Source: Candidatus Moraniibacteriota bacterium
GTDB taxonomy: Bacteria; Patescibacteriota; Minisyncoccia; Moranbacterales; UBA2206
DNA length: 64,000 nt
Assembly (NCBI GenBank): GCA_026396175.1
Contig: JAPLXG010000013.1
Location: 65,267-129,266, forward strand
Direction of reading: 5' to 3'
This document shows, piece after piece, positions 3,545 to 63,076 of the stretch. The notes under the pieces are model-generated. The model saw nothing but the letters and a program-made list of their open reading frames with translations, searched no databases and was not told the origin of the DNA. The translations under genes were made by a program, and so were the position numbers. How positions within the stretch are numbered: the first letter of the stretch is position 1; every line of letters begins with the position of its first letter.

Positions 3545-3770
3545 TCTTAGGACTTATGCGCTTGAATAGATTTGTCATCCTGAGCGGAGTCCGTACTCGG
3601 ACGCAGTCGAAGCCTGCCTGCCGGTAGGCAGGGATCTACCGACTATTATCGCTGGCTTAGTGATACATAGTAAGACCTAGGATTATCACAAGCAGATCCT
3701 TCGACTCCGCTACGCTTCGCTCAGGATGACATGGTTTGGTTATTTTTTTTGCAAATGCGTAAGTCCTAAA
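3545..3770. repeat. MITE-like long hairpin element, family A (copy 1)
   Basis: Terminal inverted repeats ttaggacttatgcg...tgtcatcctgagcg // cgctcaggatgaca...gcgtaagtcctaa. The interior contains the REP palindrome cctgcctgccggtaggcagg. Three more copies sit at 38633, 45219 and 62901. Confidence 0.6.
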
Positions 3771-4917: not shown

Positions 4918-5095
4918 GTGCGCCCACCAGGATTTCCGCCAGTGGGCGGATGACCGTTTGCTTAAAAGTCCGCCGGCTGGCGGATCTACCAGCGAGTTTT
5001 TTATTTGTGCGCCCACCAGGATTTCCGCCAGTGGGCGGATGACCGTTTGCTTAAAAGTCCGCCGGCTGGCGGATCTACCAGCGAGTTTTTTATTT
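4918..5095. repeat. two tandem units of about 89 bp that are degenerate tRNA-Lys copies disrupted by palindromic inserts
   Basis: The units at 4918-5006 and 5007-5095 share tgcgcccaccagga... and ...ccgtttgcttaaaag... with the authentic tRNA-Lys next door. The T-arm and anticodon-arm segments are replaced by the palindromes tccgccagtgggcgga and tccgccggctggcgga. Confidence 0.6.
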
Positions 5096-5096
5096 G

Positions 5097-5170
5097 TGCG
5101 CCCACCAGGATTCGAACCTGGGACCGTTTGCTTAAAAGGCAACTGCTCTACCAGACTGAGCTATAGGCGC
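5097..5170 (-). tRNA. tRNA-Lys (anticodon TTT)
   Basis: The minus-strand sequence gcgcctatagctcagtctggtagagcagttgccttttaagcaaacggtcccaggttcgaatcctggtgggcgca folds as a cloverleaf (7-bp acceptor, D-arm agctcagtctggtagagc, anticodon loop cttttaa, T-arm ccaggttcgaatcctgg). It is close to canonical bacterial tRNA-Lys. There is no encoded CCA. Confidence 0.8.
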
Positions 5171-6513: not shown

Positions 6514-7629
6514 TTACTCCCCCAACTGGCCCAACTCCTCAAGCAATCTTTTTTGCTCACGGTTTAGACGTTTCGGAATCCGCACAATCACTTTCACGAT
6601 CTGATTGCCACGCGATCCCGAATGCAGATTGGGTACACCCTTGCCTTTGACGCGAAACTGCTCGCCCGACTGCGTCCCGGAAGGAATTTTCAAAGTTAAG
6701 CGACCATCAATCGTTTCAATGATCGTCTCGCCACCCAGCGCCGCGACCGAAAAAGGAATTTCCACTGAACTCAAAATATCCTGTCCATTTCTTTTAAATT
6801 CCTTATGCGCCCGGACATGGACATTAATATATAAATCACCAGGAACTCCACCAACTCCGCCCGCTTCTCCCGCGCCTTGCATCGAAAGCGTCTGCCCATC
6901 AGCAATTCCCGCCGGAATCTCAATGTCTAATTTATTCTCTGCCATCACCCGACCATCCCCTCTGCACTTAGAGCATTTCTTTGAGATAATTTTGCCAACA
7001 CCGTGACAATCCGGACACTCTGCCACTTGCGAAAAACTGCCGAAAAAACTACGACTGATTTTTTGCACGCGCCCCGCTCCACCGCAAGTCGCACAAGTCT
7101 TGAGTTCACTGCCTTTTTCACCGCCAGCACCATCACAACGATCACAAATTGTGCTTTTGCGTAAATTGATTTGTCGCTTTGCGCCACTGACCATTTCAGC
7201 AAAATCTATTTCCACATCCACTTGAATATCTTTTCCGCGCTTGCGGCGAGTTGTACTGCCGCCGCGACCACCACTAAAAATTGAAGAAAAAATATCTTCA
7301 AAGTCTCCTCCATCAAAACCGAAGCCCTGACTCGAAAAGTCCCAGCCCGAGGCGGGTCCGCCTTGGGAGGAAAAGCCACCAAAACCTTGTCCACCGCCCG
7401 CACCTGACCTCCCCGCTTGATCAAATGTCTGACCATATTGGTCATATTGCGAACGTTTAGATTTGTCGGAAAGCACCTGATAGGCCTCGTTAATTTCCTT
7501 GAACTTCGCCTCGTCACCACCAGTCTTATCTGGATGATGCTTGTGCGCCAACTTGCGATAAGCTTTTTTGATCTCATCGTCGCTGGCGCCTTTGGAAACG
7601 CCTAAAATATTATAGTAATCGTTAGACAT
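6514..7629 (-). CDS. dnaJ: chaperone DnaJ
   Basis: J-domain YYNILGV...HPDK. G/F-rich region. Four CxxCxGxG zinc-finger repeats ([32 protein letters not shown]). C-terminal domains present. Confidence 0.95.
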
Positions 7630-15442: not shown

Positions 15443-15600
15443 TGTCATTCCCGCGAAGGCGGGAATCCAGGTTCCGCTAGCCATAGACTCTGAAAAATCG
15501 AATTATAAATCCCCCAACTTTTATTTTCTAACAAGCAAATCTCGCTTTTCTTTTTTTATAGCCTGAGGCGCCTGGATCCCCGCCTCCGCGGGGATGACAC
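15443..15600. repeat. MITE-like element, family B (gtcattcccgcgaaggcgggaatccag TIRs)
   Basis: Left end gtcattcccgcgaaggcgggaatccag, right end ctggatccccgcctccgcggggatgac. The same termini flank an 87-bp in-frame insert in elp3 (52504-52590). Confidence 0.55.
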
Positions 15601-17624: not shown

Positions 17625-18065
17625 CTAAAGTCCCATCACTTGGATGATGATATCGCGCTTTCTCGCGCCGTCCATTTCCGCCACAAAAATATTCTGCTTG
17701 GAAGTAAGGATCATATGCCCTTTTTCCAAGGGAACCGTTTCACTGACTCCCAAAAGCATCACCTTACAATGCGAATGACCGTTGCTCCTCCCATCCGATT
17801 TATTTTTTTTAGCCAGCTCAAAAAGATCATGGGAATAGCGCTCGTCAACCGGCGCCAAGCGATAGAGTACACGGGTAAAGTCTTGCAAAAGCATCGGTTC
17901 GTTGTGATTGACGAAAATTCCAGCCGAAGTATGCGGAGAATAGATCAGCACCGTCCCTTCGCGTACGCCGGAAAGACTGACCACTTCCGCCACCTTGTCG
18001 GTAATGTCAATAATTTCCACACTTGTGGTGCTGGTTATTTCGATTTTTTTGCGGAATATTTTCAT
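17625..18065 (-). CDS. YjbQ/UPF0047 family secondary thiamine-phosphate synthase-like protein
   Basis: 146 aa. Pattern IDITDKV...SPHTSAGIF...HSHCKVMLLG...TSKQ is typical of the YjbQ family. Confidence 0.7.
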   Translation of the reverse strand: MKIFRKKIEITSTTSVEIIDITDKVAEVVSLSGVREGTVLIYSPHTSAGIFVNHNEPMLLQDFTRVLYRLAPVDERYSHDLFELAKKNKSDGRSNGHSHCKVMLLGVSETVPLEKGHMILTSKQNIFVAEMDGARKRDIIIQVMGL

Positions 18066-18175
18066 ATTATTATCCGATACGAAACTACGAATTGAATCCG
18101 AATCTACGAAAAAAATTCAGTAGCATTTCGTAGAGTTCGTAGATTCGCATATATTTCGTTGTTTCGAATCGGTTA

Positions 18176-19300
18176 TTATTTTTTAAACACGCCCGCCACC
18201 TTTTTGACCACGCTTTTATCCAGCGCTCTTGGAATTATTCTATCACGAGTTGGCTTTTTTACCAAACTGGCAATCGCATAGGCGACTTTAATTTTATGCT
18301 CTTCGGTAATTTTTTTAATTTTATTATCCAACACGCCACGAAAAATTCCCGGAAACGCCAAAACATTGTTAATTTGATTGGCAAAGTCCGAGCGGCCAGT
18401 CGCCACAATGCGCGCGCCACCAGCTTTGGCACGGTCCGGCAAAATTTCCGGAATGGGATTAGCCATCGCAAACACAATTGAATTTTTATTCATCTGCGCG
18501 ATATCTTCTTCCGTGAGAATATTGGGCGCTGAAACGCCAATAAACACGTCCGCGAGATGAAGTGCGTCACGCACATTACCTTTGACATTTTCCGGATTCG
18601 TAATTTTGGCAATTTCCATTTTTGATCCATTAAGCCCACCCGCTCTTTCTCGATAGATTATCCCCATCCGATCGAGCATAATGATATTTTTCGCCCCCGC
18701 TTTAATGAGCAATTTGGCAATCGCCACACCCGCCGCGCCTGTCCCGGAAATGACAATTTTAATTTTTGCTAAATCTTTTTTAACCACTTTCAACGCATTG
18801 ATGAGTCCGGCCAGAACCACAATCGCCGTCCCATGTTGGTCATCGTGGAAAACCGGAATATCCAATTCTTTTTTCAAGCGTTCCTCAATCTCAAAACAAC
18901 GCGGCGCGCAAATATCTTCCAGGTTTATTCCGCCAAAAGTTGGCGCCAGTGCTTTTATTATTTTAATAATCTCCTGCGTATCTTGCGTCGCAAGCACAAT
19001 CGGAATCGCATCCACTCCGGCAAGTTCTTTCATCAGCAAAGCTTTGCCTTCCATCACCGGTAGCGCCGCTTCTGGACCAATATTGCCCAGGCCTAGTACC
19101 GCCGAGCCATCAGAAATCACCGCCACAGTATTTTTGCGAATGGTATATTGAAAAGATAATTTTTTATCCTTGGCAATTGCCTTCGACACTTCCGCCACCC
19201 CCGGAGTATACAAAACCGCCAGATTCTTATCTGTTAATTTAACTTTACTGCAAATTTCAATTTTCCCGCCGATTTTTTTGGAAAGCTTAATTGAATTCAT
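18176..19300 (-). CDS. NAD(P)-dependent malic enzyme (short form)
   Basis: 374 aa. LAVLYTPGVAE, NIGPEAALPVMEGKALL, the Rossmann stretch ISGTGAAGVA, and FAMANPIPE are present. Confidence 0.9.
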   Translation of the reverse strand: MNSIKLSKKIGGKIEICSKVKLTDKNLAVLYTPGVAEVSKAIAKDKKLSFQYTIRKNTVAVISDGSAVLGLGNIGPEAALPVMEGKALLMKELAGVDAIPIVLATQDTQEIIKIIKALAPTFGGINLEDICAPRCFEIEERLKKELDIPVFHDDQHGTAIVVLAGLINALKVVKKDLAKIKIVISGTGAAGVAIAKLLIKAGAKNIIMLDRMGIIYRERAGGLNGSKMEIAKITNPENVKGNVRDALHLADVFIGVSAPNILTEEDIAQMNKNSIVFAMANPIPEILPDRAKAGGARIVATGRSDFANQINNVLAFPGIFRGVLDNKIKKITEEHKIKVAYAIASLVKKPTRDRIIPRALDKSVVKKVAGVFKK

Positions 19301-20811: not shown

Positions 20812-20878
20812 AAATTTAAAAAATTAAAAATTATATTTGTATATTCGTACATTCGTACAAATTCGTAATTCGTAGAGA

Positions 20879-22703: not shown

Positions 22704-22872
22704 TCGTTTAGCGCTTAGGTTTATTTTCCAACTTTCATCTTTATAATATACTAAAAAACCAACCGCTTGTCGAGAAGCTGGATTTTATAAAGACTTCCTT
22801 TGCCCCCCCACTATATTCGTAGATTCGCATTCATTCGTAGATTCGCATCGGTCTTTCGTAGTTTCGAATCGG

Positions 22873-23601
22873 TTATCCTAAGTAATGTTCCAAAGTATAA
22901 ATCCAATTTTCATCATTATTCTCCTCTTGATCGCGCGCACGAACTTTTTCGTTCAAAAGCCATTGGAGGTAATTTCGATCCTTCCCCGCAACATCCGCCA
23001 CGCTCATCCCGATATATTTCCCGAAGTTGAATTTTTTGACCAAAACCGGGCGCGCAGAAACATCCAGCATTTCTTGGATTATTATCGCTTCATCCTTCCC
23101 GCCAGTTAACATTTTTTCAAAATAGAAATCAAACAATCTTTCCAAAACGCGGATATCCCCCAACGCGTCATGCGCCTGGGCATTCGGCACTTCCAAGTCA
23201 TGATAGTAGCGCAAATATTGCAGCGCGTATTTGGGAATTTCTCCGGAAGCGTCAAGATATTGCGCCAATTTGAAAGTATCGATCAAATTTTTCGGTTCCA
23301 GTTTTTCGCGCTTGAGCATCTCTGCGTCAAACCCGGCGTTATGCGCAACCAAAATGTGATCACCGGAAAAAATTTCCGCTAACTTTTTATGCATCGCAGA
23401 GTCTAAAAATAATTCTTTATCCGCCACCATTTTATTCGTGATATGCGCCACCGCCATCGCGTCAATACTAATCGGCACCGGCGGCTTAAAAAGCGCTTCG
23501 TTTTCCGCATCTTGAAATTTATAGGCCACTTGGCATAAACGATCATCCGGCCCAATCCCGGTCGTTTCAGTGTCGAGAAATATCAAATGCGATTTGTTCA
23601 T
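22873..23601 (-). CDS. DEDDh 3'-5' exonuclease (DnaQ-like) with C-terminal helical domain
   Basis: Exo I motif FLDTETTG, Exo II HNAGFDAEML, Exo III HDALGDIRVL. Confidence 0.8.
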   Translation of the reverse strand: MNKSHLIFLDTETTGIGPDDRLCQVAYKFQDAENEALFKPPVPISIDAMAVAHITNKMVADKELFLDSAMHKKLAEIFSGDHILVAHNAGFDAEMLKREKLEPKNLIDTFKLAQYLDASGEIPKYALQYLRYYHDLEVPNAQAHDALGDIRVLERLFDFYFEKMLTGGKDEAIIIQEMLDVSARPVLVKKFNFGKYIGMSVADVAGKDRNYLQWLLNEKVRARDQEENNDENWIYTLEHYLG

Positions 23602-33317: not shown

Positions 33318-35693
33318 TTACCGGATTATCTTACCACCCTTTCCAACCTGATCAATTTTCACTGAAAGCAATTTTGACATTCCGTCTTCTCCCATGGTAA
33401 CGCCATACAGTAGTGAAGCTTGGCGCATTGTTTCGCGATTATGCGTGATGATCACAAATTGCGTTGAATCGGAAAGATCTTGAATAATGCGACCGAAACG
33501 CTTCGAATTTGCTTCATCGAGCGCCGCTTCCACTTCATCTAGGATAGAAAATGGTGGCGGATTGTGCGCAATAATGGCGAAAAGTAGCGCAAGGGAAGTG
33601 AGTGAGCGTTCTCCACCAGAAAGCATCGCGAGACTGGCAATTTTTTTGCCGGCCGGACAGGCAGAAATGTCTATCCCGATTTCGTCCTTATCATCTTCTC
33701 CATCAGCTGGCGGATTCAACTCGCCTTCTTCCGTTTCATTCCCTTGCTCAGTTGCCTCACTTTCCAAAATTTCGTCTTTCGTCCGGCGCGTTTTTATTTT
33801 CACCTTAGTCAAATGCGCGTCCCCACCGCCAAAAATAATGCGGAAATATTTGGAAAATTCTTTGTTAATCTCATCAAAAGTTTCATGAAATTTTTCATTC
33901 ACCTTTTTCTCCATTTCTTTGATTACTTCACGAAGTGAAACAAGGGCGTTTTCCAAATCAGCCGATTCTGTCGTTAAAAATTGAAAACGTTTTTCCGTCT
34001 CATTATATTCCGTCAGAACCAGTGGATCGATGCCACCAATTTGCTCCATCTGGAATTTCAATTTGGCAATTTCTCGTTCCAAGGAAAATTGATCAACTGT
34101 TTCTAATTTTTTGTCCAGAAGCTCCGCTTCCATCTTCAGCTCTTCCAAAATCCGCGCCCGCAAATCTTCTTCACGCACCTCGATTTTTGCCAAAGAAATT
34201 TTAAAATCGTTATATTTATCCTTGAAAGAATTCGTCTCGTCCTGCTTCAAGCGTAATTCGCGCTCAACTTGAAAAAATTGCTGACGCTTTTCGCGATCCA
34301 AGGCAATTTCCGCTTGAATCTCTTTGGCAATTTTTTGTAAATCTTCTTCCAGTGTCCTTATCTCCGCGCGAACTTGGAAAGATTTAGCTCTCAAATCAAT
34401 AATCGCTTGAGAATCTGCTTGAACAACAACTTCAATCGGCTTCGCCTCAACTTTTTTCGCCGGCATAGAAGTTTCCTTTTTGCCTGCCTGCCGGTAGGCA
34501 TGGCCATTTTCAATATCCCCTCGCAATTCCGTCAATTTTTGCTGAATCCTGCGCGCCAATTCTCGCACCGCTTCAATATCTTTCAAATCTTTGGCAACGT
34601 TCAGTTTTTGCACTAAAATTTCCTGGTCGCGCCGAATCTCTTCCAGATTACCTTTGACGTAACTCAAATCTACCGGCTGGCTTTGAATTTTTATCTCTTC
34701 GATGATTTGGATGCTTTTTTGTTTTTCTTTTTCCAGCTCGATCCGTCCTTCGGAAATGATCAGCTCCCGCTCCAAATCATTGAGGCGGGTGCGTTTTTCT
34801 CTTTGGCTTTTTTCCAACTCCTGCAAAGTCTCATTGGTTTTTTCTTCCTTGGAACGTCGATTGACTTCGTCCATCAATTTGTCCGCTTCCCGCTGAATAT
34901 TATTCATCTTTGCGCCTAACGTATCTTTTTCTTCGTTTAATTTCAGCTTGTCCTCATTGAACTTATTCCACAGATAGGTATAGAGCTTAGTTTGTTTTTC
35001 TTTCAAGTCCTTCGCCACAATTTCACTCTGCGCCGCTTTTTCCGCTTGACGCTTGAGCACCCGAAGATGCGGCCTAATTTCTTCGATTAGCTCGGAAGCG
35101 CGCACTAAATTCGCTTTAGTCGTTTCCAGTTTGCGCAGTGATCGTTCTTTTTTGATCTGATATTGCTTCACTCCCGCCGCTTCCTCAATCACAAACCGCC
35201 GTTCCAGTGGCGTGGCGCTAAGAATCGAATCAGCCATTCCCTGATTGATGATCGCATAGCTTTCTTTGCCCACTCCCGCTTTCGCTAGGATGTCCACAAT
35301 ATCTTGCAGTCTCACTCGCGAACCATTGACCAAATATTCACTTTCCCCACTGCGAAAAATTTTGCGACAAATTGCCACTTCAGAAAAATCCAGGGGCAAT
35401 CGTTTTTCACTATTATCAAAATAGAGCGTCACTTGCGCGCTACCCAATTTGGCTTTTTTTCCTGATCCGGCAAAAATAATATCCTCCGATTTTTTGCTAC
35501 GCAAATTTTTCATCGACTGTTCTCCGATCACCCAACGCATCGCATCGGCAATATTGGATTTTCCCGAACCATTCGGTCCAACAATTGCCGTTATTCCCTG
35601 AGCTCCGCCATCTTTCGGTGACGTCGAAAAATCCAACACCGTTTTCGCTGCGAAAGATTTAAACCCATTGATTTCCAGTTTTTTCAAAAACAT
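33318..35693 (-). CDS. smc: SMC-family chromosome segregation ATPase (short form)
   Basis: Probable start MFLKKLEINGFKSF. Walker A GPNGSGKSN, long coiled coils, C-terminal signature LSGGERSLTSLALLFA, and Walker B/D-loop ILDEVEAALD. A REP palindrome is inserted in frame within the coiled-coil region. The track ORF extends upstream to 35729. Confidence 0.85.
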   Translation of the reverse strand: MFLKKLEINGFKSFAAKTVLDFSTSPKDGGAQGITAIVGPNGSGKSNIADAMRWVIGEQSMKNLRSKKSEDIIFAGSGKKAKLGSAQVTLYFDNSEKRLPLDFSEVAICRKIFRSGESEYLVNGSRVRLQDIVDILAKAGVGKESYAIINQGMADSILSATPLERRFVIEEAAGVKQYQIKKERSLRKLETTKANLVRASELIEEIRPHLRVLKRQAEKAAQSEIVAKDLKEKQTKLYTYLWNKFNEDKLKLNEEKDTLGAKMNNIQREADKLMDEVNRRSKEEKTNETLQELEKSQREKRTRLNDLERELIISEGRIELEKEKQKSIQIIEEIKIQSQPVDLSYVKGNLEEIRRDQEILVQKLNVAKDLKDIEAVRELARRIQQKLTELRGDIENGHAYRQAGKKETSMPAKKVEAKPIEVVVQADSQAIIDLRAKSFQVRAEIRTLEEDLQKIAKEIQAEIALDREKRQQFFQVERELRLKQDETNSFKDKYNDFKISLAKIEVREEDLRARILEELKMEAELLDKKLETVDQFSLEREIAKLKFQMEQIGGIDPLVLTEYNETEKRFQFLTTESADLENALVSLREVIKEMEKKVNEKFHETFDEINKEFSKYFRIIFGGGDAHLTKVKIKTRRTKDEILESEATEQGNETEEGELNPPADGEDDKDEIGIDISACPAGKKIASLAMLSGGERSLTSLALLFAIIAHNPPPFSILDEVEAALDEANSKRFGRIIQDLSDSTQFVIITHNRETMRQASLLYGVTMGEDGMSKLLSVKIDQVGKGGKIIR

Positions 35694-36118
35694 AACATCA
35701 TGAAACATGAAGCATGAAACATGAAACAAAAAAGCTTACGCCTAATTTGTCTTATGCTTCATGCCTGCCTGCCAGTAGGCAGGTTATATGCTATATGTTA
35801 TATGTGTTTTTATTCTACTACACTTTAAAAAATTGGACAACGCCGTTTTTGCTGATATAATTAAAATACGCTTACGCGCAATGAATTTTCTCCGCCAGCT
35901 GGCGGATTAAATTTGAAATCAAGATCAAGTGACTAAATGCTTAAATGATAATTTAAAAATAAACTTCCTCACAGCAAACTAATAAGGCATTAGGGAATCT
36001 ACTTTACCCATTATGTAGCAACCTGCTGGGAATCAAACCCCTGAGTAATTAAAAATTTAATAATTTAGATTTGATTTTAAATTTATAATTTTAAATTTCA
36101 AATTTTTATTGCACTCCT

Positions 36119-37026: not shown

Positions 37027-37160
37027 CTACGAATTACGAACAAATACGAATGTACGAATAAATGCGAAATACTTTAAGAAAAATTAGGCTCAGTTTAAAT
37101 TATATTCGTACATTCGTACAAATTCGTAATTCGTAGAGAAAACCGTAATTCGTAGAGAAA
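37027..37160. repeat. TTCGTA/TACGAA hexamer-rich repeat array just upstream of cysS
   Basis: tatattcgtacattcgtacaaattcgtaattcgtagag recurs nearly identically at 20838-20877. Related arrays are at 18076-18175, 22813-22876 and 61160-61200. Confidence 0.5.
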
Positions 37161-37165
37161 ATCAT

Positions 37166-38632: not shown

Positions 38633-38848
38633 CAGGACTTGCGCGTTTAAATTAAATTTGTCATCCTGAGCGGAGTCCTGTAATCAGGACGCAGTCGAAG
38701 GATCTGCTAACCGTAACCCATAGCTTTCTATTCGATATTAGGGCTTACGATAATGGAAAGTAGATCCCTGCCTACCGGCAGGCAGGCTTCGGCTTCGCTC
38801 AGGATGACATGGTTTAGTTGTTTTTAAACAAACGCGTAAATCCTAAAA
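38633..38848. repeat. MITE-like long hairpin element, family A (copy 2)
   Basis: aggacttgcgcg...tgtcatcctgagcg // cgctcaggatgaca...acgcgtaaatcct. The interior contains the REP palindrome. Confidence 0.6.
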
Positions 38849-43774: not shown

Positions 43775-43900
43775 GAGAAGCCTGCCTGCCGGTAGGCAGG
43801 GTGGCCCCGCCGTGGCGGGGATGAGGGAGAAGAGGTATTGAAAGACTATTCCGTAGCCTCACCTGTCACGACGTAACGTCGGGACATCCTCTCCCTAAGT
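43775..43900. repeat. compound palindromic repeat cluster
   Basis: The REP palindrome cctgcctgccggtaggcagg, then ggccccgccgtggcggggatg, then the module gactattccgtagcctcacctgtcacgacgtaacgtcgggacatcctctccc. The same module recurs at 53870-53910. Confidence 0.5.
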
Positions 43901-45218: not shown

Positions 45219-45427
45219 ATGTCATCCTGAGCAAAGTCCGTACTCGGACGAAGCCGACCGCGTGCCGCCTTAGCTTTAGCGGTGGAGCAAGGATCTGCCA
45301 TCCACTACCGCAAGTTTTCTGTAATATAGTAAAACTTACGACAACCTATAGCAGATTCTTCGACTCCGCTGCGCTACGCTCAGAATGACAAGAGTTGTTT
45401 ATTTTTTCATGCAAATGCGTAAGTTTT
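45219..45427. repeat. MITE-like long hairpin element, family A (copy 3)
   Basis: atgtcatcctgagcaaagtccgtactcggacg ... cgctcagaatgacaagag...gcaaatgcgtaagtt. Confidence 0.55.
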
Positions 45428-46508: not shown

Positions 46509-46634
46509 AATGGTGCGGGACAAATTAGACGATCTCGGAACTTTAAGCGGGATAAACGCCACCCATTGCCCTACCGGCTCCGCCTGCCTACCCTGCCTAC
46601 CGGCAGGCAGGCGGCAGGCAGAGCTACGACCCAA
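46509..46634. repeat. degenerate tRNA-derived and REP composite
   Basis: The inverted partial copy of the 46338-46410 fragment (tggtgcgggacaaattagacgatctcggaacttt) is followed by a degenerate tRNA-Gln 5' half (cccattgccctaccggc ... agctacgacccaat). That half is split by tandem REP palindromes (tccgcctgcctaccctgcctaccggcaggcaggcggcaggcag). Confidence 0.5.
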
Positions 46635-51957: not shown

Positions 51958-53667
51958 ATGCTTAAAGCTTACGACAATTTCGTTAAACTGGCAATGAAAG
52001 AACCCGTCGCCACTTCCGGCGAATTTTTGCGCGTTAAAAAAAATGTTTCCAAGATTTTGCAACTTCCCGTGCCGACCAACGCTGATTTGCGCGAGGCTTA
52101 TGAAAAATTAGTTGCGGGGAAAAAGATCAAAAGAAACCCAGCTTTCGAAAAAATTCTCATCAGCAAAAAAATCCGTACCCGCTCCGGCGTGGCCGTCGTC
52201 GCCGTTCTCACCAAGCCCTATCCTTGCCCCGGAAAGTGTCTCTATTGTCCGAGCGAAGCCAAGATGCCCAAGAGCTATCTCAAGAATGAGCCGGCAGTTA
52301 TGCGCGCCATTTCTGTGAAATTTAGCCCTTACAAACAAGTGCAAAAACGTCTCCACGCACTGGAATTGAACGGTCACAAAACCGACAAAATCGAGCTGAT
52401 TGTGATGGGTGGCACTTTTTCCTATTTTCCCAAAACCTATCAAAATTGGTTTATCACGGAATGTTTTCGGGCGGTGAATGAATATGGCAAAAAAATCAAA
52501 AGTCCCTTTCTTTGTCATTCCCGCGAAGGCGGGAATCCAGTGTGTAAACTTAAAGATGCGAGACTAGATTCCCGCCTTCGCGGGAATGACATTAACTGTG
52601 CGGTTCCTAAATCGATTATTAAAAATTTAAAAAAGGACCTTTTAACCGAACAGAAAAAAAATGAAACTGCCAAGCGCCGGATTATCGGCTTAACCTTGGA
52701 AACCCGCCCGGATTACATTTCCGAAAAAGAAATTTTGAATTTTCGCACGCTTGGATGCACGAGAGTGGAGCTTGGCGTGCAAAGTGTTTTTGATGACGTG
52801 CTCAAAAAAAATAATCGCGGGCATAACGTGGCCGAAACAATTCGCGCCACAAAACTCTTGAAAAACGCCGGCTTTAAAATCAACTACCATATTATGCCGG
52901 GACTTTATGGCTCAGATGCTTTGAAAGATTACCAGATGTTCAAAACTCTTTTTTCCTCACCAGACTTCCAGCCAGATATGCTCAAAATTTATCCCACAGT
53001 CGTTCTTCGCGATAGCGCACTCTACTCGGCGTGGAAAAAGGGAAAGTATCAGGCCTTGGATGATAAGCAATTTGAAAAATTTATTCTGCGCGTGAAAAAA
53101 AATCTCATCCCGCCCTATGTCCGCATTGCGCGCCTGGTGCGTGATGTCCCCGCCGAATCAATCATCGCTGGACCACTCGTCTCAAACTTACGTCAAATGA
53201 TTGCCGAAAAATCCCAGTGCCTGTGCATCCGTTGCCGAGAGGTGGGGGGGGATTTTAGCCCAAATGAAGGCATCGTTCTAAACCGCATAGATTATGATGC
53301 ATCAGATGGAAAAGAGATATTTTTAGAATACGCGACAAAAGACACAAAAAAACTATTTGCTCTTTTGCGCCTACGTATAAATCCGCTTGAATTAGAAAAT
53401 CGGAAAACCACAGTTCCCGCCCTCAAAAACTCCGCCATCATCCGCGAGGTGCATACTTATGGAACGATGACGCAAATTGATAAGAAAAATAGTAAATCAC
53501 CGCAACATATCGGCCTCGGAAAAAAACTAATCGCCGAAGCCCAAAAAATCGCCAAGCAGGAATTCGGTCTCCAAAAAATCGCCATCATTTCCGGCGTTGG
53601 CGCCCGCGAGTATTACCGAAAACTAGGTTATCGCTTGAAGGATAGTTATATGGTAAAATGTATTTAG
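51958..53667 (+). CDS. Elp3-like radical SAM / GNAT acetyltransferase (tRNA U34 carboxymethyltransferase homologue)
   Basis: 569 aa. Radical-SAM cluster CPGKCLYCPS, a C-terminal GNAT fold, and an 87-bp family B palindromic element inserted in frame (residues ...SREGGNPVCKLKDARLDSRLRGNDI...). Confidence 0.85.
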   Translation: MLKAYDNFVKLAMKEPVATSGEFLRVKKNVSKILQLPVPTNADLREAYEKLVAGKKIKRNPAFEKILISKKIRTRSGVAVVAVLTKPYPCPGKCLYCPSEAKMPKSYLKNEPAVMRAISVKFSPYKQVQKRLHALELNGHKTDKIELIVMGGTFSYFPKTYQNWFITECFRAVNEYGKKIKSPFLCHSREGGNPVCKLKDARLDSRLRGNDINCAVPKSIIKNLKKDLLTEQKKNETAKRRIIGLTLETRPDYISEKEILNFRTLGCTRVELGVQSVFDDVLKKNNRGHNVAETIRATKLLKNAGFKINYHIMPGLYGSDALKDYQMFKTLFSSPDFQPDMLKIYPTVVLRDSALYSAWKKGKYQALDDKQFEKFILRVKKNLIPPYVRIARLVRDVPAESIIAGPLVSNLRQMIAEKSQCLCIRCREVGGDFSPNEGIVLNRIDYDASDGKEIFLEYATKDTKKLFALLRLRINPLELENRKTTVPALKNSAIIREVHTYGTMTQIDKKNSKSPQHIGLGKKLIAEAQKIAKQEFGLQKIAIISGVGAREYYRKLGYRLKDSYMVKCI

Positions 53668-53689: not shown

Positions 53690-53960
53690 GCGGAAATCTT
53701 TACTAATATCCTCTTCGCCCTCCGGGAGAAGGTGCCCGAAGGGCGGATGAGGGAAAGGGTTCAATATTAGGCAAAAACCAAATTAACTTAGATCATTCCC
53801 AACTTATAGCCCTTGCCCTCACCTGTCATGAGTACATGACATCCTCTCCCGAGGGGAGAAGAGGAATTAAAGGGACTATTCCATAGCCTCACCTGTCCTC
53901 CGGACATCCCTGCCTACCGGCAGGCAGGCTCTCCCGAGGGGAGAGGAGGATATTCCTAAG
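53690..53960. repeat. compound palindromic repeat cluster
   Basis: Contains gccctccgggagaaggtgcccgaagggcgg, two copies of the cctcacctgtc...gacatcc module, the REP palindrome ccctgcctaccggcaggcagg, and ctcccgaggggagag hairpins. Confidence 0.5.
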
Positions 53961-54928: not shown

Positions 54929-55225
54929 CTAACTTTTGCTTAAAGATTTTTTCATTCTTCTTTTTAGCTGTCCTAACGCTTGCCCATATTGTTTTAGCTG
55001 TTTTTCTCTTTCCCAAGCATCCTCCTCTGCAAAATACGCCTCATAATAAACAAGGCGCCATTTATGTCCTTTTGTAAATTTAGAATCATTGTTATTGTGC
55101 TGAAAAAATCTTTTTTTCAAATCATCAGTACAGCCATAATACAATTCTTCATCTTCATTTTTTAGAACATACACATATTGCATACTCGTAAAAGCAAAAG
55201 TTAGTGCGGGACAAGCTGCCCGCAA
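54929..55225 (-). CDS. GIY-YIG nuclease domain protein (second copy)
   Basis: YVYVLKNEDEELYYGCTDDLKKR gives the GIY/YIG/R motifs, with EREKQLK downstream. It overlaps the rlmN start by 25 nt. Confidence 0.75.
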   Translation of the reverse strand: MRAACPALTFAFTSMQYVYVLKNEDEELYYGCTDDLKKRFFQHNNNDSKFTKGHKWRLVYYEAYFAEEDAWEREKQLKQYGQALGQLKRRMKKSLSKS

Positions 55226-56286
55226 GCGCCTTGGACCTCTTGCCCAAGACTTTTCCGAATCGTCACACTCATCCCGCCTTTTTTCAAATAGTTTTTGAAT
55301 AAATGCGTTTTATTGCCAGAAGACGACTTAAATTCTTTGCCGGTTTCATTGTAGGCGATTAAGTTAATATGCAAAAGTTGGCGATTGCCGATGGATTTTA
55401 GATAGGTCGAAAGCGCATAGGCGTCTTCTTCGCTATCGTTTATGCCTGCGAGCATCACGTATTCCACGAAAACTTGCCGATTGGTTTTGGAAAAATAATC
55501 CTTGAGCGCTTTTTTTAATTCTTCTAGATTATATTTTTTGTTGATCGGCATATATTCATTTCTTTTGACGTCACTCGCGAAATGCAGAGAAATAGCCAAG
55601 TTGATTTGCGGAAATTCCTGGGCGAGAGACTTTATCCCTTCGGGAATTCCAGCGGTCGAAACAGAAATTGAGCGCGAACCAAAAGCAAATAAATTCTTGT
55701 CGGTCAAATCTTTGAGACTTTTTTTCACTTCCTCCCAATTCAAAAACGGCTCCCCCATACCCATATAGACAATGTTATTCACATTGTAATTTTTAATTTT
55801 TAATTTTTCCGCCCAAGGCGGACCAGCCTGGGGCTGGTAATTTTTAAACAAATTAGAATTTTTTTGCAGGTGCTGTTTCCAAAATAAAACCTGATCGCTG
55901 ATTTCTTCAGCCGTTAAATTCCGTTGAAATCCGTTTTTTCCCGTTGCGCAAAAAGCACAATTCAAAGGGCAGCCGACTTGCGAAGAGATACAAACCGACC
56001 ACTTCCCCGCAATCGGAGAAAGTAACACAGATTCAATTTTATTCCCATCGGCCAATTTCAAAAGAGCTTTCAAGGAATTTTTATCCTTCGATACTAAAAC
56101 TTTTTCCACATCAAAGGAAAGGATTTTTATTTCTTTTTCCAAGTGTTCGCGCAAGTTTTTAGAAATAGTTGAAATTTCTGAAAAATCAGAAACGCCATCT
56201 TGATAGATGGCTTTTTGAATTTGGCTCAAGCGAAATTTCGGTTCGCCACTTTCAGTGAGAATTTTTTTTAGTTTTTCGATTTGCAT
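55201..56286 (-). CDS. rlmN: 23S rRNA (adenine2503-C2)-methyltransferase / tRNA m2A37 methyltransferase RlmN
   Basis: Radical-SAM motif SQVGCPLNCAFCATG. The C-terminal catalytic Cys region and full-length similarity in layout match RlmN. Confidence 0.9.
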   Translation of the reverse strand: MQIEKLKKILTESGEPKFRLSQIQKAIYQDGVSDFSEISTISKNLREHLEKEIKILSFDVEKVLVSKDKNSLKALLKLADGNKIESVLLSPIAGKWSVCISSQVGCPLNCAFCATGKNGFQRNLTAEEISDQVLFWKQHLQKNSNLFKNYQPQAGPPWAEKLKIKNYNVNNIVYMGMGEPFLNWEEVKKSLKDLTDKNLFAFGSRSISVSTAGIPEGIKSLAQEFPQINLAISLHFASDVKRNEYMPINKKYNLEELKKALKDYFSKTNRQVFVEYVMLAGINDSEEDAYALSTYLKSIGNRQLLHINLIAYNETGKEFKSSSGNKTHLFKNYLKKGGMSVTIRKSLGQEVQGACGQLVPH

Positions 56287-56772: not shown

Positions 56773-57777
56773 CTAAAGTTCGCATAAATTAGCCAGCCGT
56801 GCAAATTCATCATTCACAATTTTTTGCACTTGAGCGAGGACTAGTTTATTTTTCTCCGAAAAAAGATGCTTGAACCGTCCTTGAGTTTTTAGAAATTCCG
56901 TCACCGGCTTCAATGTTTTCGGTTCCCAATTCAGTTTATATTTCCCATTTTCAATTTCATAGAGCGGCCAGAAATTTGTCTCTGTCGCCAATTTGGCGAT
57001 GGCGACATATTGCGAGGTGGGAAATTTCCAATTATTTGTGCACGGCGAAAAAACCGTGAGAAAACTTGGCCCATCGACAGCCAAAGCTTTTTTCGCTTTC
57101 ATTTTGAGATCAGCAAGGTTGGCAATATTAGCTTGTGCGACATAAGCAATATTATGCGCTGCCACAATTCCCATCAAATTTTTGCGCAGCTCGACTTTGC
57201 CAAAAGATTCTTTTCCGATTGGTGTCGTTTCCGTCGCGGCGCCATAGGGCGTGGCGGAAGATCTTTGATTGCCGGTGTTCATGTACCCCCCATTATCATA
57301 GACCACATAGAGAAAATTATGCCCGCGTTCAAATGCGCCAGAAAGCGCTTGGAGTCCGATGTCATAGGTCCCGCCGTCTCCACCAAAGGCTACGAACTTG
57401 ATTTTTTTCGGCAAATCTAATTTGCCGCCCTGAGCTTGTCGAAGGGTCCCGTCCTGAGCTTGTCGAAGGGTCCCGTCCTGAGCTTGTCGAAGGGTCCCGT
57501 CCTGAGCTTGTCGAAGGGTTTTTTTCCGTAAAGCAAGATAGGCTCGCTCCACACCAGAAATAGTCGCTGCCGCATTTTCAAAGGCGCTGTGAATATATGG
57601 CACGTTCCATGCGGTGTAGGGATAGATGGTCGAAGTCACTTCAAGACATCCCGTCGCATTGGAAATGACCACCGGAGTCGCCGCCTCACCCAAAATTGTC
57701 CTAACAATCGAAGGAAACGCGCATCCCGCGCAAGCACTGTGACCGGGAGCTAGGTTTTTTGATAAATTTTCGTTCAT
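56773..57777 (-). CDS. porB: pyruvate:ferredoxin oxidoreductase, beta (TPP-binding) subunit
   Basis: Cys cluster GHSACAGC and TPP motif GGDGGTYDIG. It contains an in-frame 24-bp tandem repeat encoding (TLRQAQDG) x4. Confidence 0.9.
   Translation of the reverse strand: MNENLSKNLAPGHSACAGCAFPSIVRTILGEAATPVVISNATGCLEVTSTIYPYTAWNVPYIHSAFENAAATISGVERAYLALRKKTLRQAQDGTLRQAQDGTLRQAQDGTLRQAQGGKLDLPKKIKFVAFGGDGGTYDIGLQALSGAFERGHNFLYVVYDNGGYMNTGNQRSSATPYGAATETTPIGKESFGKVELRKNLMGIVAAHNIAYVAQANIANLADLKMKAKKALAVDGPSFLTVFSPCTNNWKFPTSQYVAIAKLATETNFWPLYEIENGKYKLNWEPKTLKPVTEFLKTQGRFKHLFSEKNKLVLAQVQKIVNDEFARLANLCEL
57429..57520. repeat. 24-bp tandem repeat (about 3.8 copies) inside porB
   Basis: cctgagcttgtcgaagggtcccgt repeats head to tail. 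The unit contains the cctgagc / gtcgaagg motifs seen in the family A MITE termini. Confidence 0.8.
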
Positions 57778-57831: not shown

Positions 57832-58182
57832 TTAATTTTTATCAGTGCAATTTCTTGATATTTTAGCGAAAATCAATGTCAATTCATGTGCTTCTTTCCA
57901 CAACTCCCTGCACTTTTCTTTTTTATCGGGAACGGCAATAGAAATCATTCTCGACCAATGATTTGATTCATTTGACTCCTTTTGACAAATCCTAATTTTA
58001 TTTTTAAAGTCTTTCCTGGAGCTAGCCTGATTAGCTTCCATATAATTAGCTCCCACGCTGGTAGCCGCCCGAACAAATTGATTGATCAATGGTTTTGTTA
58101 TTTGATTAACCGAAACTGACATGCAAAACAAAATTACATTCTCTCCAAATTTAGCCACTCTCTCTTCCAAGTCGTAGTCCAT
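57832..58182 (-). CDS. four-helix-bundle protein (PF05635-like), inserted between porB and porA
   Basis: 116 aa. QFVRAATSVGANYMEANQASSRKDF matches the 23S rRNA-IVS / four-helix-bundle family core. Confidence 0.7.
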   Translation of the reverse strand: MDYDLEERVAKFGENVILFCMSVSVNQITKPLINQFVRAATSVGANYMEANQASSRKDFKNKIRICQKESNESNHWSRMISIAVPDKKEKCRELWKEAHELTLIFAKISRNCTDKN

Positions 58183-58237: not shown

Positions 58238-59422
58238 TTATTGCAAGTATTTTTCCTTAAACTTCCCTCCCAAAATCTGCTCAATCTGTTTTTTGAAAAC
58301 ATCTCTCCCGCCCAAGCCATAGACAATGCTTTGTATTTGGTATTTAGTATCTGGCCCGCCTGCCGACGAGGCAGGTATTTGGTATAGGGAATTAATTATC
58401 TCAGAATACAAAGGTGGATGAGAGCCAATTGATTGCGCGCGATCCATCACAATTATTTCTTTGGCCTTTTTTAATGCACCGGCAATTTCCGCAAACGGAA
58501 ACGGCCGAAATAATTCAATTTTAATAAGCCCGACTTTCATGTTTCTCTTTTTTAATTCATCAACCGCATCCTTGGCTGTGCCTGCAACTGACCCGATCAA
58601 CACTAAAACTTTTTCCGCGTCTTTTACGTTGTATTCTTCAAATAAACCATATTTTCTGCCACTAATTTTCTCATATTCTTCTGTGACTTTTCTGTACTCT
58701 TCTGTGACCTTTTCTGTGGCCAATTCTTGATCAATCTTGAATTCAAAATAGGATTCTTGCAGGGCGACTGGACCATAGGTCACCGGGTTTTCAATGTCGA
58801 GCAGCGAATGTTCCGGAAGATAGTCTCCGATAAATTTTTTGACAATTTCGGCATCCAAAATTTCTAAATTTTCCACACTGTGCGAAGTATTAAATCCGTC
58901 CATAATCACCATTACCGGCAACCCAACGCGTTCGGCCAGTTTCATTCCGATGATTGTTTTGTCATAGACTTCCTGTGGATTTTCACAAAAAATTTGAATC
59001 CAGCCAGAGTCACGAGAACCCATCACATCACTGTGATCACCGTGAATGCTAAGCGGTGCTGAGAGCGCACGCGCCGCTACAACCATCAGAATCGGCAAAC
59101 GCATACCCGAGGCGATATAGAGCATTTCGTGCATATACGCCAAGCCCTGTGAGCTTGTGGCCGTCACTGTGCGCGCTCCGGCCGCTGAAGCGCCAATCGC
59201 CGCGCTCATCGCGCTATGCTCCGATTCCACTTCAATCATTTCCGTCTCCACCTCGCCGTCCGCCACAAATTTGGCATACGTTTCAATGATCGGTGTCTGT
59301 GGAGTAATCGGATAGACAGGCATCACATCCGGCTCAATTTGCTTCAAAGCGTACGCTGCTGCGTACCCACCAGTCAATGCTCTTCTGGTATTTGGTATTT
59401 TGTATTTAGTATTTGGTATCAT
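58238..59422 (-). CDS. porA: pyruvate:ferredoxin oxidoreductase, alpha subunit
   Basis: 394 aa. Matches the layout of the 2-oxoacid:ferredoxin oxidoreductase alpha domain. A REP palindrome is inserted in frame near the C-terminus (IPASSAGGPDTKY). Confidence 0.9.
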   Translation of the reverse strand: MIPNTKYKIPNTRRALTGGYAAAYALKQIEPDVMPVYPITPQTPIIETYAKFVADGEVETEMIEVESEHSAMSAAIGASAAGARTVTATSSQGLAYMHEMLYIASGMRLPILMVVAARALSAPLSIHGDHSDVMGSRDSGWIQIFCENPQEVYDKTIIGMKLAERVGLPVMVIMDGFNTSHSVENLEILDAEIVKKFIGDYLPEHSLLDIENPVTYGPVALQESYFEFKIDQELATEKVTEEYRKVTEEYEKISGRKYGLFEEYNVKDAEKVLVLIGSVAGTAKDAVDELKKRNMKVGLIKIELFRPFPFAEIAGALKKAKEIIVMDRAQSIGSHPPLYSEIINSLYQIPASSAGGPDTKYQIQSIVYGLGGRDVFKKQIEQILGGKFKEKYLQ

Positions 59423-59802
59423 GAATTTTTAATTCTCTTTAGGCCACTTATGAGCTTTGCTACTCTTATGCTTTGTGCCGCCAGTTTATCAAACTCTTCT
59501 TTTTTTAGATACTTTGTATCTCTTGCGATTATCAGTTGATTTTGAAGTTCGGTCAATGAGCCATGCGCCATACAATAAAATTGATATTTATCTTTCGAAG
59601 TATTCCTGCTGAAACCTTCTGCGATATTAGAAGTGATAGAAACAGCCGCTCTGCGCATTTGATTTGTCAATCCGAATATCTCTTTACTTGGAAATTTTTC
59701 GGTTACTTTATAAACTATCAAAACAAATTTATGCCCTTCCTGCCAAGCAACCAAATCTGTAAAGGATCTTATTTTTATTTTTTGTTCCATACTATATACC
59801 AA
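59419..59802 (-). CDS. four-helix-bundle protein (PF05635-like), inserted between porA and porD
   Basis: SFTDLVAWQEGHKFVLIVYKVTEKFPSKEIFGLTNQMRRAAVSITSNIAEGFSR is the canonical family core. Confidence 0.8.
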   Translation of the reverse strand: MVYSMEQKIKIRSFTDLVAWQEGHKFVLIVYKVTEKFPSKEIFGLTNQMRRAAVSITSNIAEGFSRNTSKDKYQFYCMAHGSLTELQNQLIIARDTKYLKKEEFDKLAAQSIRVAKLISGLKRIKNS

Positions 59803-59805: not shown

Positions 59806-60117
59806 CTATCTACCAGATACCATTTTAATTGCGCGGGCGGGGCAAACCTGAGCGCAAACTCCGCATCCTTTGCAAAATTCATAATCTATTTCCGCAATGC
59901 CTTTTTTATTCTTACTATTCACTGACTTCTGCTTGCCTGCCGAAGCCTTAGTGTAGGCAGGCTCACTGCTCATTGTTATCGAAGCATCGGGACAAAACGG
60001 CACGCAAGTCGCGCAACCGATGCATTTATCTTTGTCCACTTCCGGCTTCATATACCGCCAAGAACCAGTCCGGGGAGATTTTTTGATATCGTGTTTGATG
60101 ATTGCACCGTGCTCCAT
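59806..60117 (-). CDS. porD: pyruvate:ferredoxin oxidoreductase, delta (2x[4Fe-4S] ferredoxin) subunit
   Basis: CIGCATCVPFCPD and CKGCGVCAQVCPA. A REP-like insert (EPAYTKASAGKQKS) lies between the two cluster motifs. Confidence 0.88.
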   Translation of the reverse strand: MEHGAIIKHDIKKSPRTGSWRYMKPEVDKDKCIGCATCVPFCPDASITMSSEPAYTKASAGKQKSVNSKNKKGIAEIDYEFCKGCGVCAQVCPARAIKMVSGR

Positions 60118-60165: not shown

Positions 60166-60570
60166 CTATTTAATATTTACAATTCTTTTATATCTAATTC
60201 CGTCGTTGGTAAAATAAACCAAGATTCCTAACTTTAAATTCACTGCTTTGAGATAAGAATATAGTTGCTCTATATCTTTCTTGGAAAAATAATTCTTCTG
60301 TTTTAATTCGATAACAATCCTATCTAGAACCAAAAAGTCAAAAAGATAGTATCCAATTTCTTTGCCTTTAAACTTTACTCTTGCTTTTAACTGCTCCTTG
60401 AGGGTTATGCCGTTTTCAGTAAAAATATTAGCAACTGCTTTTTGATAAAACTTTTCTTTATGTCCGTAACCAACATTATTAAAAACCTCAAAAATAAGCC
60501 CGATAATTTTATAACACTCCTCTTTATAAATTAACTCCTCCCTTGCTCTCATTAGTATATTCGTACACAA
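60166..60570 (-). CDS. GxxExxY family protein (PD-(D/E)XK-like), inserted between porD and porG
   Basis: ECYKIIGLIFEVFNNVGYGHKEKFYQKAV...YLFDFLVLDRIVIELK matches the GxxExxY family pattern. Confidence 0.7.
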   Translation of the reverse strand: MCTNILMRAREELIYKEECYKIIGLIFEVFNNVGYGHKEKFYQKAVANIFTENGITLKEQLKARVKFKGKEIGYYLFDFLVLDRIVIELKQKNYFSKKDIEQLYSYLKAVNLKLGILVYFTNDGIRYKRIVNIK

Positions 60571-61157: not shown

Positions 61158-61342
61158 GTAGTCTCTACGAATTACGAATTTATACGAATATACGAATTCA
61201 GTAAATTAAAAACAACATTTACTTACTAAGATAAGTATAGCACAAAAAGACACACAAAAATAGAGCTGAAATAAAAAAGCTGTTCCGAGTCATTCCGACC
61301 AAGAACAGCTCGATTATACCCGCAGCATCTACACCGGCGTAG

Positions 61343-62900: not shown

Positions 62901-63076
62901 TGTCATCCTGAGCGAAGCGAAGCGAAGTCGAAGGATCTACTTTCCATTATCGTAAGCTCTGTTGTTAAGTAGAAAGCCCTGGGTTACGGTTAGCAGATCC
63001 TTCGACTGCGTCCCGAGTACGGGACTTCGCTCAGGATGACAGAACTGTGTTGTTTTCCGGAAAATGTGTAAGTCCT
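62901..63076. repeat. MITE-like long hairpin element, family A (copy 4)
   Basis: ttgtcatcctgagcgaagcgaagcgaagtcgaaggatct ... gatccttcgactgcgtcccgagtacgggacttcgctcaggatgaca. Its central segment is the reverse complement of the central segment of copy 2. Confidence 0.6.

Follow-up and report, generated by a model that had tools for sequence, protein, structure and literature searches.

An In-Frame Tandem Repeat in porB of a Moraniibacteriota Bacterium and Its Relation to a Widespread Hairpin Module

Introduction

Short repeats that lie in frame inside the genes of core enzymes raise the question of how they arrived, how they grew, and whether the protein has any use for them. We address this question for porB, a gene in a 64,000-nucleotide stretch of Candidatus Moraniibacteriota contig JAPLXG010000013.1 (hereafter the window, whose own numbering is used throughout). 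The gene encodes the thiamine pyrophosphate (TPP)-binding beta subunit of a four-subunit pyruvate:ferredoxin oxidoreductase (PFOR), and its reading frame contains a head-to-tail array of 24-nucleotide (nt) units. We favor, at a probability of roughly 0.7, the hypothesis that a hairpin derived from a repetitive extragenic palindrome (REP) or a miniature inverted-repeat transposable element (MITE) entered a permissive loop of PorB, was amplified by slippage into an in-frame variable-number tandem repeat (VNTR), and is carried as a nearly neutral passenger.

Results

Insertion Site in PorB

The intact 334-residue open reading frame (ORF) matches the Pfam family TPP_enzyme_C (PF02775; E 4.6e-18), its closest relatives are annotated as PFOR beta subunits of Candidatus Moranbacteria or Moraniibacteriota, and its top solved match, PFOR beta of Methanosarcina acetivorans (9bt4_C, E 7e-74), is also the top hit in Foldseek. 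The GDG...N motif of PorB is conserved (FGGDGGTYDIG...DNGGYMNTGNQ) and porA and porD are neighbors, with porA at 58238-59422 and a two-cluster ferredoxin (Fer4) gene at 59806-60117, both upstream of porB. The exact 334-residue protein has no record in public assemblies. We dismissed two antisense ORFs on the plus strand (57010-57420 and 57135-57401) as spurious shadows of the gene.

Comparison with homologs places the array at a turn that is generally short. Linker lengths were scored in 113 of the 120 top homologs, those in which both anchors were found; the linker has 14 residues in 74 of the 113 and 47 residues in the window, the longest seen. In an alignment with 29 relatives the uninserted, basal form reads ..ALRKKGKIKKKIKFV.., which is the ERAYxALRKKGKIKKKIKFVAFGGDGG region. 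The insert sits between a helix ending in ..ERAYLALRKK (residue 86) and the strand KFVAFGGDGG (from residue 127), and the alignment to 9bt4_C is split accordingly: residues 9-86 match 10-87 of the chain and 127-318 match 91-283, so that the 40 residues 87-126 of the window protein stand for the three-residue turn 88-90. We conclude that the segment is a true insertion into a permissive turn of PorB.

The turn in 9bt4_C joins the helix to a beta-strand with the GDG cofactor motif at its far end. In the usual topology of TPP-binding domains, the N-terminal end of that strand would lie on the face opposite the diphosphate/Mg site; the loop would be expected to face the solvent, remote from the cofactor. 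The AlphaFold2 (AF2) model is of modest quality, with a mean predicted local distance difference test score (pLDDT) of 65 that falls below 50 at residues 96-119, and it prolongs the preceding helix into the first unit, to residue 101. The site was therefore mapped by sequence alignment to 9bt4_C, and the model was used solely to call the insert low-confidence.

Structure and Growth of the Array

Tandem Repeats Finder reports the array at 57425-57519 with a period of 24, 4.0 copies, 98% matches, no indels and a score of 183. The 18-mer CCTGAGCTTGTCGAAGGG has four exact plus-strand matches, which start at 57429, 57453, 57477, and 57501; allowing 3 mismatches reveals no further copy in the 64-kb window, and its chance expectation is 0.00. 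The array is thus a head-to-tail repeat, with a unit above 10 nt, beyond chance. Each unit comprises 8 codons, and the array encodes residues 87-118 in frame, as TLRQAQDG three times followed by TLRQAQGG. An earlier sequence-only reading of this DNA had described perfect 24-bp copies at 57429-57520, about 3.8 in number, that encode (TLRQAQDG)n inside PorB and separate conserved blocks of the protein. The tandem repeat, which is the same array in another phase, and its in-frame translation are borne out, as is the insertion, given the 14-residue linkers and the three-residue turn; a native segment of similar length, which would have spoken against an insertion, is not what most of the scored homologs have. 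Perfection holds for three units, and the fourth differs from them by 2 nt.

The position of these two differences suggests how the array grew. In coding sense the 3'-most unit ends in GGGCGGCA and is continuous with a perfect hairpin, CGGCAAAT-TAG-ATTTGCCG, whereas the three upstream units are identical to one another and have GGACGGGA where this founder has GGGCGGCA. The repeat unit is thus an 18-nt core plus six flank bases. One duplicate appears to have gained two substitutions and then to have been duplicated twice more. Such a pattern is as expected from stepwise slippage or unequal exchange, either of which may have been the mechanism. A single module is 21 nt (7 codons) long, reading ACCCTTCGACAAGCTCAGGGT in L006, GCCCTTCGACAAGCTCAGGGC in L139, and GCTCTTCGACAGGCTCAGGGC in L001.

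Within each unit lies a 13-nt hairpin heart, flanked by CC/GG and wobble pairs in the three amplified units and by CCC/GGG in the founder-like unit (57428-57446). The minimum free energy of the array and its fold does not differ from that of shuffled sequences, either as RNA (z -0.83) or as DNA (z -0.94), and a special fold of the whole array was rejected on these grounds. The only stable element in the centroid fold is the hairpin at 57409-57427, which insert-free alleles lack. A CRISPR-like arrangement was also rejected, as the units abut without spacers.

Copy-Number Variation and Allele Exchange

About 20 of the 120 top homologs have extra residues at the same place in PorB. Some are related to the window's insert (TLRQAQGALQ, TLRQAQCVTLRQAQGALQ, TLRQAQGVTLRQAQGVTLRQAQGALQ, ALRQAQGGKSNLP, TLRQAQG, ALRQAQGEF, ALRQAQDKNDKF, and ..RQARDDS.. 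as in PAGRQARDDSQ), and others are unrelated GC-rich peptides (RGVETRLIASLP, GQTQGLSLRENG, and PARPASTRGDDRSSTRGG). The site is an insertion hotspot in Moranbacteria.

We compared the DNA of seven porB alleles. In a sister clade, genes that are 96.1-98.5% identical outside the linker at the nucleotide level have 1 (P0009), 2 (P0002), or 3 units (P0001), as expected of a VNTR and of the minisatellite that the sequence-only reading had thought the array might be, for which it had asked that repeat numbers be compared among relatives. These alleles come from 3, 6, and 1+1 independently assembled contigs, and the 3-unit allele was also found in a separate metagenome (L017). In the window's own lineage there are 0 (L008), 1 (L001), or 4 units (the window). 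The spacer is GGGTGTGA in the units of the sister clade and GGACGGGA in those of the window, which indicates that the two lineages amplified the same core independently; both share the 24-nt period.

The alleles also show evidence of exchange. P0003, the porB of L001, has one degenerate unit and the window's flanking hairpin, and P0016, the porB of L140, has no insert, yet the two proteins are 100% identical outside the linker. Between the two genes there are 15 nucleotide differences over the first 318 nt, none over the 444 nt that follow, and 21 over the final 170 nt, and the boundary of the identical 444-nt tract abuts the insert. The adjacent porA genes differ by 11.7%. This mosaic divergence of porB, together with the difference in porA, is evidence that alleles have been exchanged by recombination among Moranbacteria populations. 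When the linker is left out of a neighbor-joining tree of PorB, alleles with an insert are interspersed with insert-free ones, and the nearest relatives of the window are insert-free.

The hairpin beside the array has its own history. Its loop is TAG in the coding strand of the window and CTA in the L001 allele (3001-3930), which changes the peptide from GKLDLP to GKSNLP. Such an inversion of a three-base loop between identical arms is characteristic of template switching within one strand where a hairpin is extruded. All porB alleles with an insert also have some small perfect hairpin next to the core, built in part from native flank, and insert-free alleles have none. In L139, for example, the side hairpin is CGAATTTGAT-AAA-ATCAAATTCG, and its right arm consists of the native KIKF codons.

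A Hairpin Module Found across Bacterial Phyla

The core of the unit is far more widespread than the array. A scan for the exact 18-mer, with one genome per species, returned at least 120 loci, where about 17 chance hits would be expected in the whole collection (our own arithmetic, with equal base frequencies). Among the matches listed are Bacteroidota, Cyanobacteria, Alpha-, Beta-, and Gammaproteobacteria, Actinobacteria, Chloroflexi, Acidobacteria, Planctomycetes, Nitrospirota, NC10, several groups of the Candidate Phyla Radiation (CPR), and others, with GC contents of 31-72%. The 120 listed loci (about 0.9 Mb) hold 224 instances of TGAGCYTGTCGAA, and many are multicopy. The common element is TGAGC-YTG-TCGAA with complementary flanks, which is found in many types of element.

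Covariation indicates that this element is constrained as a structure. The search left the flanks free in 82 instances, and in these the three flanking positions form Watson-Crick pairs of several types in 88-93% of cases, against 34-56% expected. Across 70 distinct sequences, 80.2% of the cells of the named structure are paired versus 64.9 +/- 1.3% in shuffles (reached by 0 of 500), 97 cells are changed on both sides versus 35 in shuffles, and the covariation score is 0.428 versus 0.162 +/- 0.018 (0 of 500), with partners slid out of register scoring 0.06-0.16. The module is a hairpin with a variable stem, a U-A pair, tandem G.A/A.G pairs, a G-C pair, and the loop C-YUG-U. A model in which the core is merely the loop of a hairpin formed by the immediate flanks was replaced by this one, in which the core is upper stem plus loop: a perfect flank stem of at least 5 bp occurs in just 9% of instances, against 1.3% of controls.

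In cultured Sphingobium, Moraxella, Comamonas, Polaromonas, and Sphingomonas, the module occurs as unannotated intergenic inverted pairs, at up to 14 places per megaplasmid, which is REP-like behavior. Within genes it can likewise be arrayed. Two cores spaced 24 nt apart were found at nine loci in the metagenome scan, among them porB of the P0001 type, an NAD-dependent epimerase (L011) with TLRQAQGD in frame at least twice and a different 2-oxoacid:ferredoxin oxidoreductase beta subunit from an unrelated organism of higher GC content (L012, 2198-3115), in which the array is read in another frame (DPSTSSGH twice) near the C-terminal third. Further arrays lie near hydrogenase genes in high-GC contigs. 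The core is open in five of the six reading frames, which would explain why the module survives in genes. In the coding cases seen, the mRNA always carries the TTCGACAAGCTCA strand and never the strand with the G.A pairs.

Rfam 15 returned only three tRNAs at the gathering threshold over the whole window and nothing at E <= 10 for the array or for a copy of the family A MITE described below, and a structured RNA was rejected for want of an Rfam match. A hammerhead-like reading of CUGA...GAA was rejected too: neither the second GA/N7 block nor GAAA is present in the core, and Rfam gives no hit. Searches of the literature with DNA and peptide strings (e.g., GAGCTTGTCGAAGG and LRQAQ) and on MITEs or inserts in CPR bacteria yielded nothing relevant.

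Relation to the Family A MITEs of the Window

The sequence-only reading had noted that the unit shares CCTGAGC...GTCGAAGG with the termini of a MITE family in the window, family A, and had suggested that the minisatellite derives from it. The shared motif is confirmed by a pattern scan: TCCTGAGC-N(0-30)-GTCGAAGG occurs in the window only in the array and in the MITE-A arms at 3698-3726, 38664-38701, 62906-62934, and 62999-63036, with an expectation of 0.00. The four MITE-A copies end in TGTCATCCTGAGC-GRAG-(small variable hairpin)-GCA-GTCGAAGGATC, and the array is homologous to the terminal blocks TGTCATCCTGAGC and GTCGAAGGATC. When the unit is aligned with the arm blocks GTC(AT)CCTGAGC and GTCGAAGG(A/G)TC, about 21 of 24 nt align, with one mismatch and two gaps. 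Furthermore, the Moranbacteria lineage P0109 has, at the same position in PorB, an insert with the MITE-A arm blocks in order, GATCCCT + GCCTnCCGGCAGGCAGGC + GCTCGGGATGA.

The proposed descent is another matter. A complete MITE-A has two terminal inverted repeats around an internal region of about 140-160 bp, and the array contains neither a second arm nor an internal region nor a demonstrable target-site duplication. The shared blocks stand, but derivation from the window's own MITE-A copies is undemonstrated, and the module is broader than this family. The unit is the compact hairpin version of the module; in the MITE-A arms, which share its stem, a larger insert replaces the loop.

A hairpin family with seven copies, GCCTGCCKGCCGGYAGGCAGG, lies at 3609-3633, 34479-34503, 35760-35784, 38763-38787, 43777-43801, 46588-46612, and 53905-53929, both within MITE-A arms and standing alone, with one copy inside ORF 33318-35729 (..HAYRQAG..). 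It is also part of the P0109 porB insert (PAGRQA).

Other Features of the Window

The features discussed above are collected in table 1. The por operon is broken up by two 23S_rRNA_IVP genes (four-helix-bundle, bAvd-like) and a PDDEXK_3 gene (57832-58182, 59419-59802, and 60166-60570), extras in which relatives vary: the interval between porA and porB is free of them in L001 and holds one in L140. Relative to the orthologs in L001 and L140, PorA has a 9-residue insert, IPASSAGGP, encoded by a GC-rich palindrome (58349-58376), and 6 additional N-terminal residues that coincide with a run of the heptamer TGGTATT (59386-59419), and the ferredoxin subunit has a 15-residue insert, SEPAYTKASAGKQKSV. 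Lineage-specific in-frame inserts are thus present in all three catalytic subunits of the operon.

Table 1. Coordinates in the window of the porB gene, its array, and related features.
Feature	Position	Strand or orientation	Evidence or remark
porB, TPP-binding beta subunit of four-subunit PFOR, 334 aa, intact	56773..57777	-	Pfam, PDB match, Foldseek, homolog names
Tandem array, four 24-nt units	57424..57519	-	TRF (Tandem Repeats Finder), sequence, translation, 18-mer positions
Three identical units ACCCTTCGACAAGCTCAGGACGGG = TLRQAQDG	57519-57496, 57495-57472, 57471-57448	coding orientation	
Last unit ACCCTTCGACAAGCTCAGGGCGGC = TLRQAQGG	57447-57424	coding orientation	2 nt off the other three
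13-nt hairpin heart TGAGCTTGTCGAA, four copies	57431-57443, 57455-57467, 57479-57491, 57503-57515	+ (porB template strand)	sequence
Perfect 8-bp hairpin CGGCAAAT-CTA-ATTTGCCG	57409..57427	+	encodes G-K-L-D-L-P; directly downstream of the array in coding sense
Family A MITE copy, termini TGTCATCCTGAGC...GTCGAAGC/GTCGAAGG	3573..3731		related, outside the array; same stem halves plus variable inner hairpin
Family A MITE copy	38659..38809		related, outside the array
Family A MITE copy	45220..45390		related, outside the array; degenerate arms
Family A MITE copy	62901..63041		related, outside the array; TCCTGAGC...GTCGAAGG in both arms
Same-strain short-read contig L141 (end)	61191-57490		
Same-strain short-read contig L143 (start)	57458-54923		
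Same-strain short-read contig L144 (start)	57425-54923		

Elsewhere, a 40-nt GC-rich palindromic element (88% complementary) occurs in opposite orientations inside two ORFs, at 7335-7374 (ORF 6514-7629) and at 55805-55844, within an RlmN-like radical SAM gene (55201-56286; ..QPQAGPPWAEK..), and both copies resemble additional repeat inserts in frame. Abutting a tRNA (5097-5170) is an exact tandem duplication of 89 bp (4918-5112). Intergenic arrays of TACGAAT-like heptamers, often in inverted pairs, occupy at least five places (18059-18187, 20835-20878, 22815-22873, 37027-37161, and 61159-61197). A scan for GC islands as a sign of repeat inserts in genes proved unspecific, as native coding sequence is often GC-rich in this genome of 42% GC, and just the palindromic cases were kept.

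Discussion

Origin and Persistence of the Array

We propose the following history. A REP- or MITE-type module of about 21 nt, N-CCC-TTCGACAAGCTCA-GGG-N' on the coding strand, would have been inserted in frame into a permissive turn of PorB in an ancestor of several Moranbacteria lineages, or would have been spread among them by recombination. In the lineage of the window, the module together with 6 nt of the adjoining flank (24 nt, 8 codons) would then have been duplicated stepwise, by replication slippage or unequal recombination, to give three identical units and the founder. Selection would filter the products for frame and for lack of stops, and the array may persist because purifying selection spares only those versions that are in frame, free of stops, and located in a tolerant loop. 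The 32 added residues would probably form a disordered or helix-extending peptide on the side of the TPP domain away from the cofactor, with little or no function of its own.

An array that was maintained for its protein product would have to be explained differently. Copy number might tune PorB through linker length, stability, or partner binding, with selection keeping a hypermutable array, and such tuning would fit the differences in repeat number among near-identical alleles, the independent amplification of the same core with the same 24-nt period in two lineages, and the extension of the preceding helix into the first repeat in the AF2 model. We nevertheless consider it quite improbable, given that most homologs, and an allele with an identical protein, do without the insert, that the peptide varies by lineage (DG vs. 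GV spacers), and that unrelated peptides occupy the site elsewhere. The same DNA module is moreover read in another frame (PSTSSG) in another gene, and the identity is thus at the level of DNA rather than of peptide. Nor is the slipped-strand contingency locus suggested by the sequence-only reading borne out. The unit length is divisible by three, the array lies within the ORF, and all alleles observed are in frame, so that changes in unit number provide no on/off switch and no change of promoter spacing; the gene encodes the beta subunit of PFOR, a cytoplasmic enzyme, and is no surface, host-interaction, or restriction-modification gene.

If the peptide is a by-product, the hairpin module could instead act in cis, as a binding site, a recombination or replication signal, or an element of the mRNA. 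The structural constraint on the module and its conservation across phyla point in this direction, as do the position of the insert exactly at the recombination breakpoint between two alleles and the loop inversion in the adjacent hairpin, which suggests that hairpins are extruded in vivo. However, the folding energy of the array is ordinary, the stem of the amplified units is weakened to 2 Watson-Crick pairs plus wobbles, the strand with the stabilizing G.A pairs is the template strand and hence absent from porB mRNA, Rfam offers no match, and insert-free alleles are common. We therefore regard a cis-acting role for the array as unlikely. That the array or its length was created by misassembly of a short repeat seems to us very improbable. 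It is true that the exact 334-residue product is not on record elsewhere and that separate k-mer assemblies of this strain end within the array. These same-strain contigs nonetheless confirm both junctions, that between flank and unit and that running from unit through founder unit to hairpin; the 95-bp array is shorter than usual reads, and the related 1-, 2-, and 3-unit alleles have been assembled repeatedly and consistently.

Several points weigh against the hypothesis of a slippage-amplified, nearly neutral passenger. Three Logan contigs from SRR20698638, SRR20698639, and ERR15302179 (3702, 2536, and 2503 nt), which match the window with 0 mismatches, all end inside the array. By the logic of de Bruijn assembly such breaks imply at least two identical internal units, so that at least three units are probably present in all; the figure of four comes from the window's assembly alone. 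The compact module occurs nowhere else in the 64-kb window, and an active source element in the genome is hence not shown. Branches scattered over the PorB tree share the module in one frame and at one site, which could mean targeted reinsertion rather than one old event followed by recombination. Finally, the AF2 model is of modest quality, and the near-neutrality of the insert is presumed.

Comparison with Known Repeat Systems

The closest precedent is offered by the Rickettsia palindromic elements (Ogata et al. 2000 Science 290:347), which, as summarized in PMC10969869, are selfish palindromic repeats that lie in frame in conserved metabolic genes, at positions compatible with the fold, and leave the host protein intact. 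The porB insert shares with the elements so summarized an in-frame, fold-compatible insertion in a conserved enzyme. According to the same summary, however, those elements are about 100-150 bp long, single insertions, and specific to Rickettsia, whereas the porB case has a primary insert of about 21 nt (plus a small hairpin), a head-to-tail VNTR, a CPR host, and a core that crosses phyla, and it differs from them in size and family. With the MITEs within ORFs (PMC10969869), and with family A of the window, the array shares the terminal-inverted-repeat blocks, and a MITE-arm-like insert occurs at the same codon position in a sister lineage. It differs in being one stem-loop module and no transposon copy.

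The CGTC-tagged REPs, which include Neisseria dRS3 and Rickettsia RPE-4 and RPE-6 (Di Nocera et al. 2013, PMC3733652), resemble the module in several respects: they are short hairpins with a (C/T)GTC tag, are found in several phyla, are sometimes intragenic, and have no dedicated transposase known. Their stem of 8-9 bp and loop of 4-5 nt are broadly comparable with those of the module. On the plus strand, CGTC stands directly before CTGAGC in each internal unit, in keeping with the tag (CGTC, TGTC, or CCTC); relatives read TGTCAC- or TGTCAT-CCTGAGC, and GTCAC and GTCAT are frequent 5' flanks of the core elsewhere. The module in general has 6 covarying flank pairs, a U-A pair, tandem G.A pairs, a G-C pair, and a 5-nt loop, but the porB units have just 2-3 Watson-Crick flank pairs. 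They lack the A-T/T-A start and the CCA tail, ending instead in TCC or GTC, and the module has a conserved tandem G.A in the stem. CGTC REPs, furthermore, are mostly head-to-head dimers, whereas the porB array is head-to-tail. The strings CTGAGC and TCGAAGG do not occur in the catalog of GTAG- and CGTC-tagged REPs (PMC3733652 and its supplements). Separately, TGTCATTCCCGCGAAGGCGGGAATCCAG, present in the window as four copies in two inverted pairs (15443-15470 with 15572-15599, and 52513-52540 with 52564-52591), fits the CGTC-1 architecture, with a TGTC tag, an 8-bp stem that starts with AT, a GAAG loop, and a CCA tail, as in Neisseria dRS3.

Contingency loci of the simple-sequence kind, as Moxon and colleagues use the term, consist of identical head-to-tail units that are polymorphic in copy number and typically lie in surface, antigenic, or restriction-modification genes. 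The porB array has such units and varies in their number among close relatives, presumably by slippage. It differs in that its unit, a multiple of three, cannot switch expression, and in that it lies in the gene of a cytoplasmic enzyme. Taken as a locus, the porB array is a further example of known phenomena, namely in-frame palindromic inserts like those of Rickettsia and an intragenic VNTR. More unusual, and unexplained, is the conservation across bacterial phyla of the hairpin that serves as its building block; no description of this hairpin was found in Rfam or with the literature strings searched.

Implications

For the enzyme, the finding is of minor importance beyond marking a loop that tolerates 3 to 47 residues. 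For the organisms, it adds an example of short palindromic repeats that colonize small CPR genomes, even in core metabolic genes. The array could serve as a natural VNTR strain marker for Moranbacteria populations, and short-read assemblies are known to break at it.

Of wider interest is the module, one hairpin of 13-18 nt with covarying stems that is common to Bacteroidota, Cyanobacteria, Proteobacteria, Actinobacteria, Chloroflexi, CPR bacteria, and others. As a tentative proposal, possible but doubtful as a whole, this block may be an undescribed, structure-constrained hairpin, 5'-N(3-6)-U-GA-GC-YUG-UC-GA-A-N'(3-6)-3', with tandem sheared G.A pairs, that is conserved down to the single nucleotide across nearly every bacterial phylum (GC 31-72%), builds REP-like dimers, MITE termini, and head-to-tail arrays, and lands repeatedly in frame in enzymes. 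If so, a common recognition machinery would be implied, be it a host factor or a widespread mobilizing enzyme, and the partly native small hairpins beside the porB inserts would be a hint that insertion duplicates the target in inverted rather than direct orientation. Because the module is present on plasmids of cultured Sphingobium, Moraxella, and Comamonas, what recognizes or spreads it can be tested experimentally.

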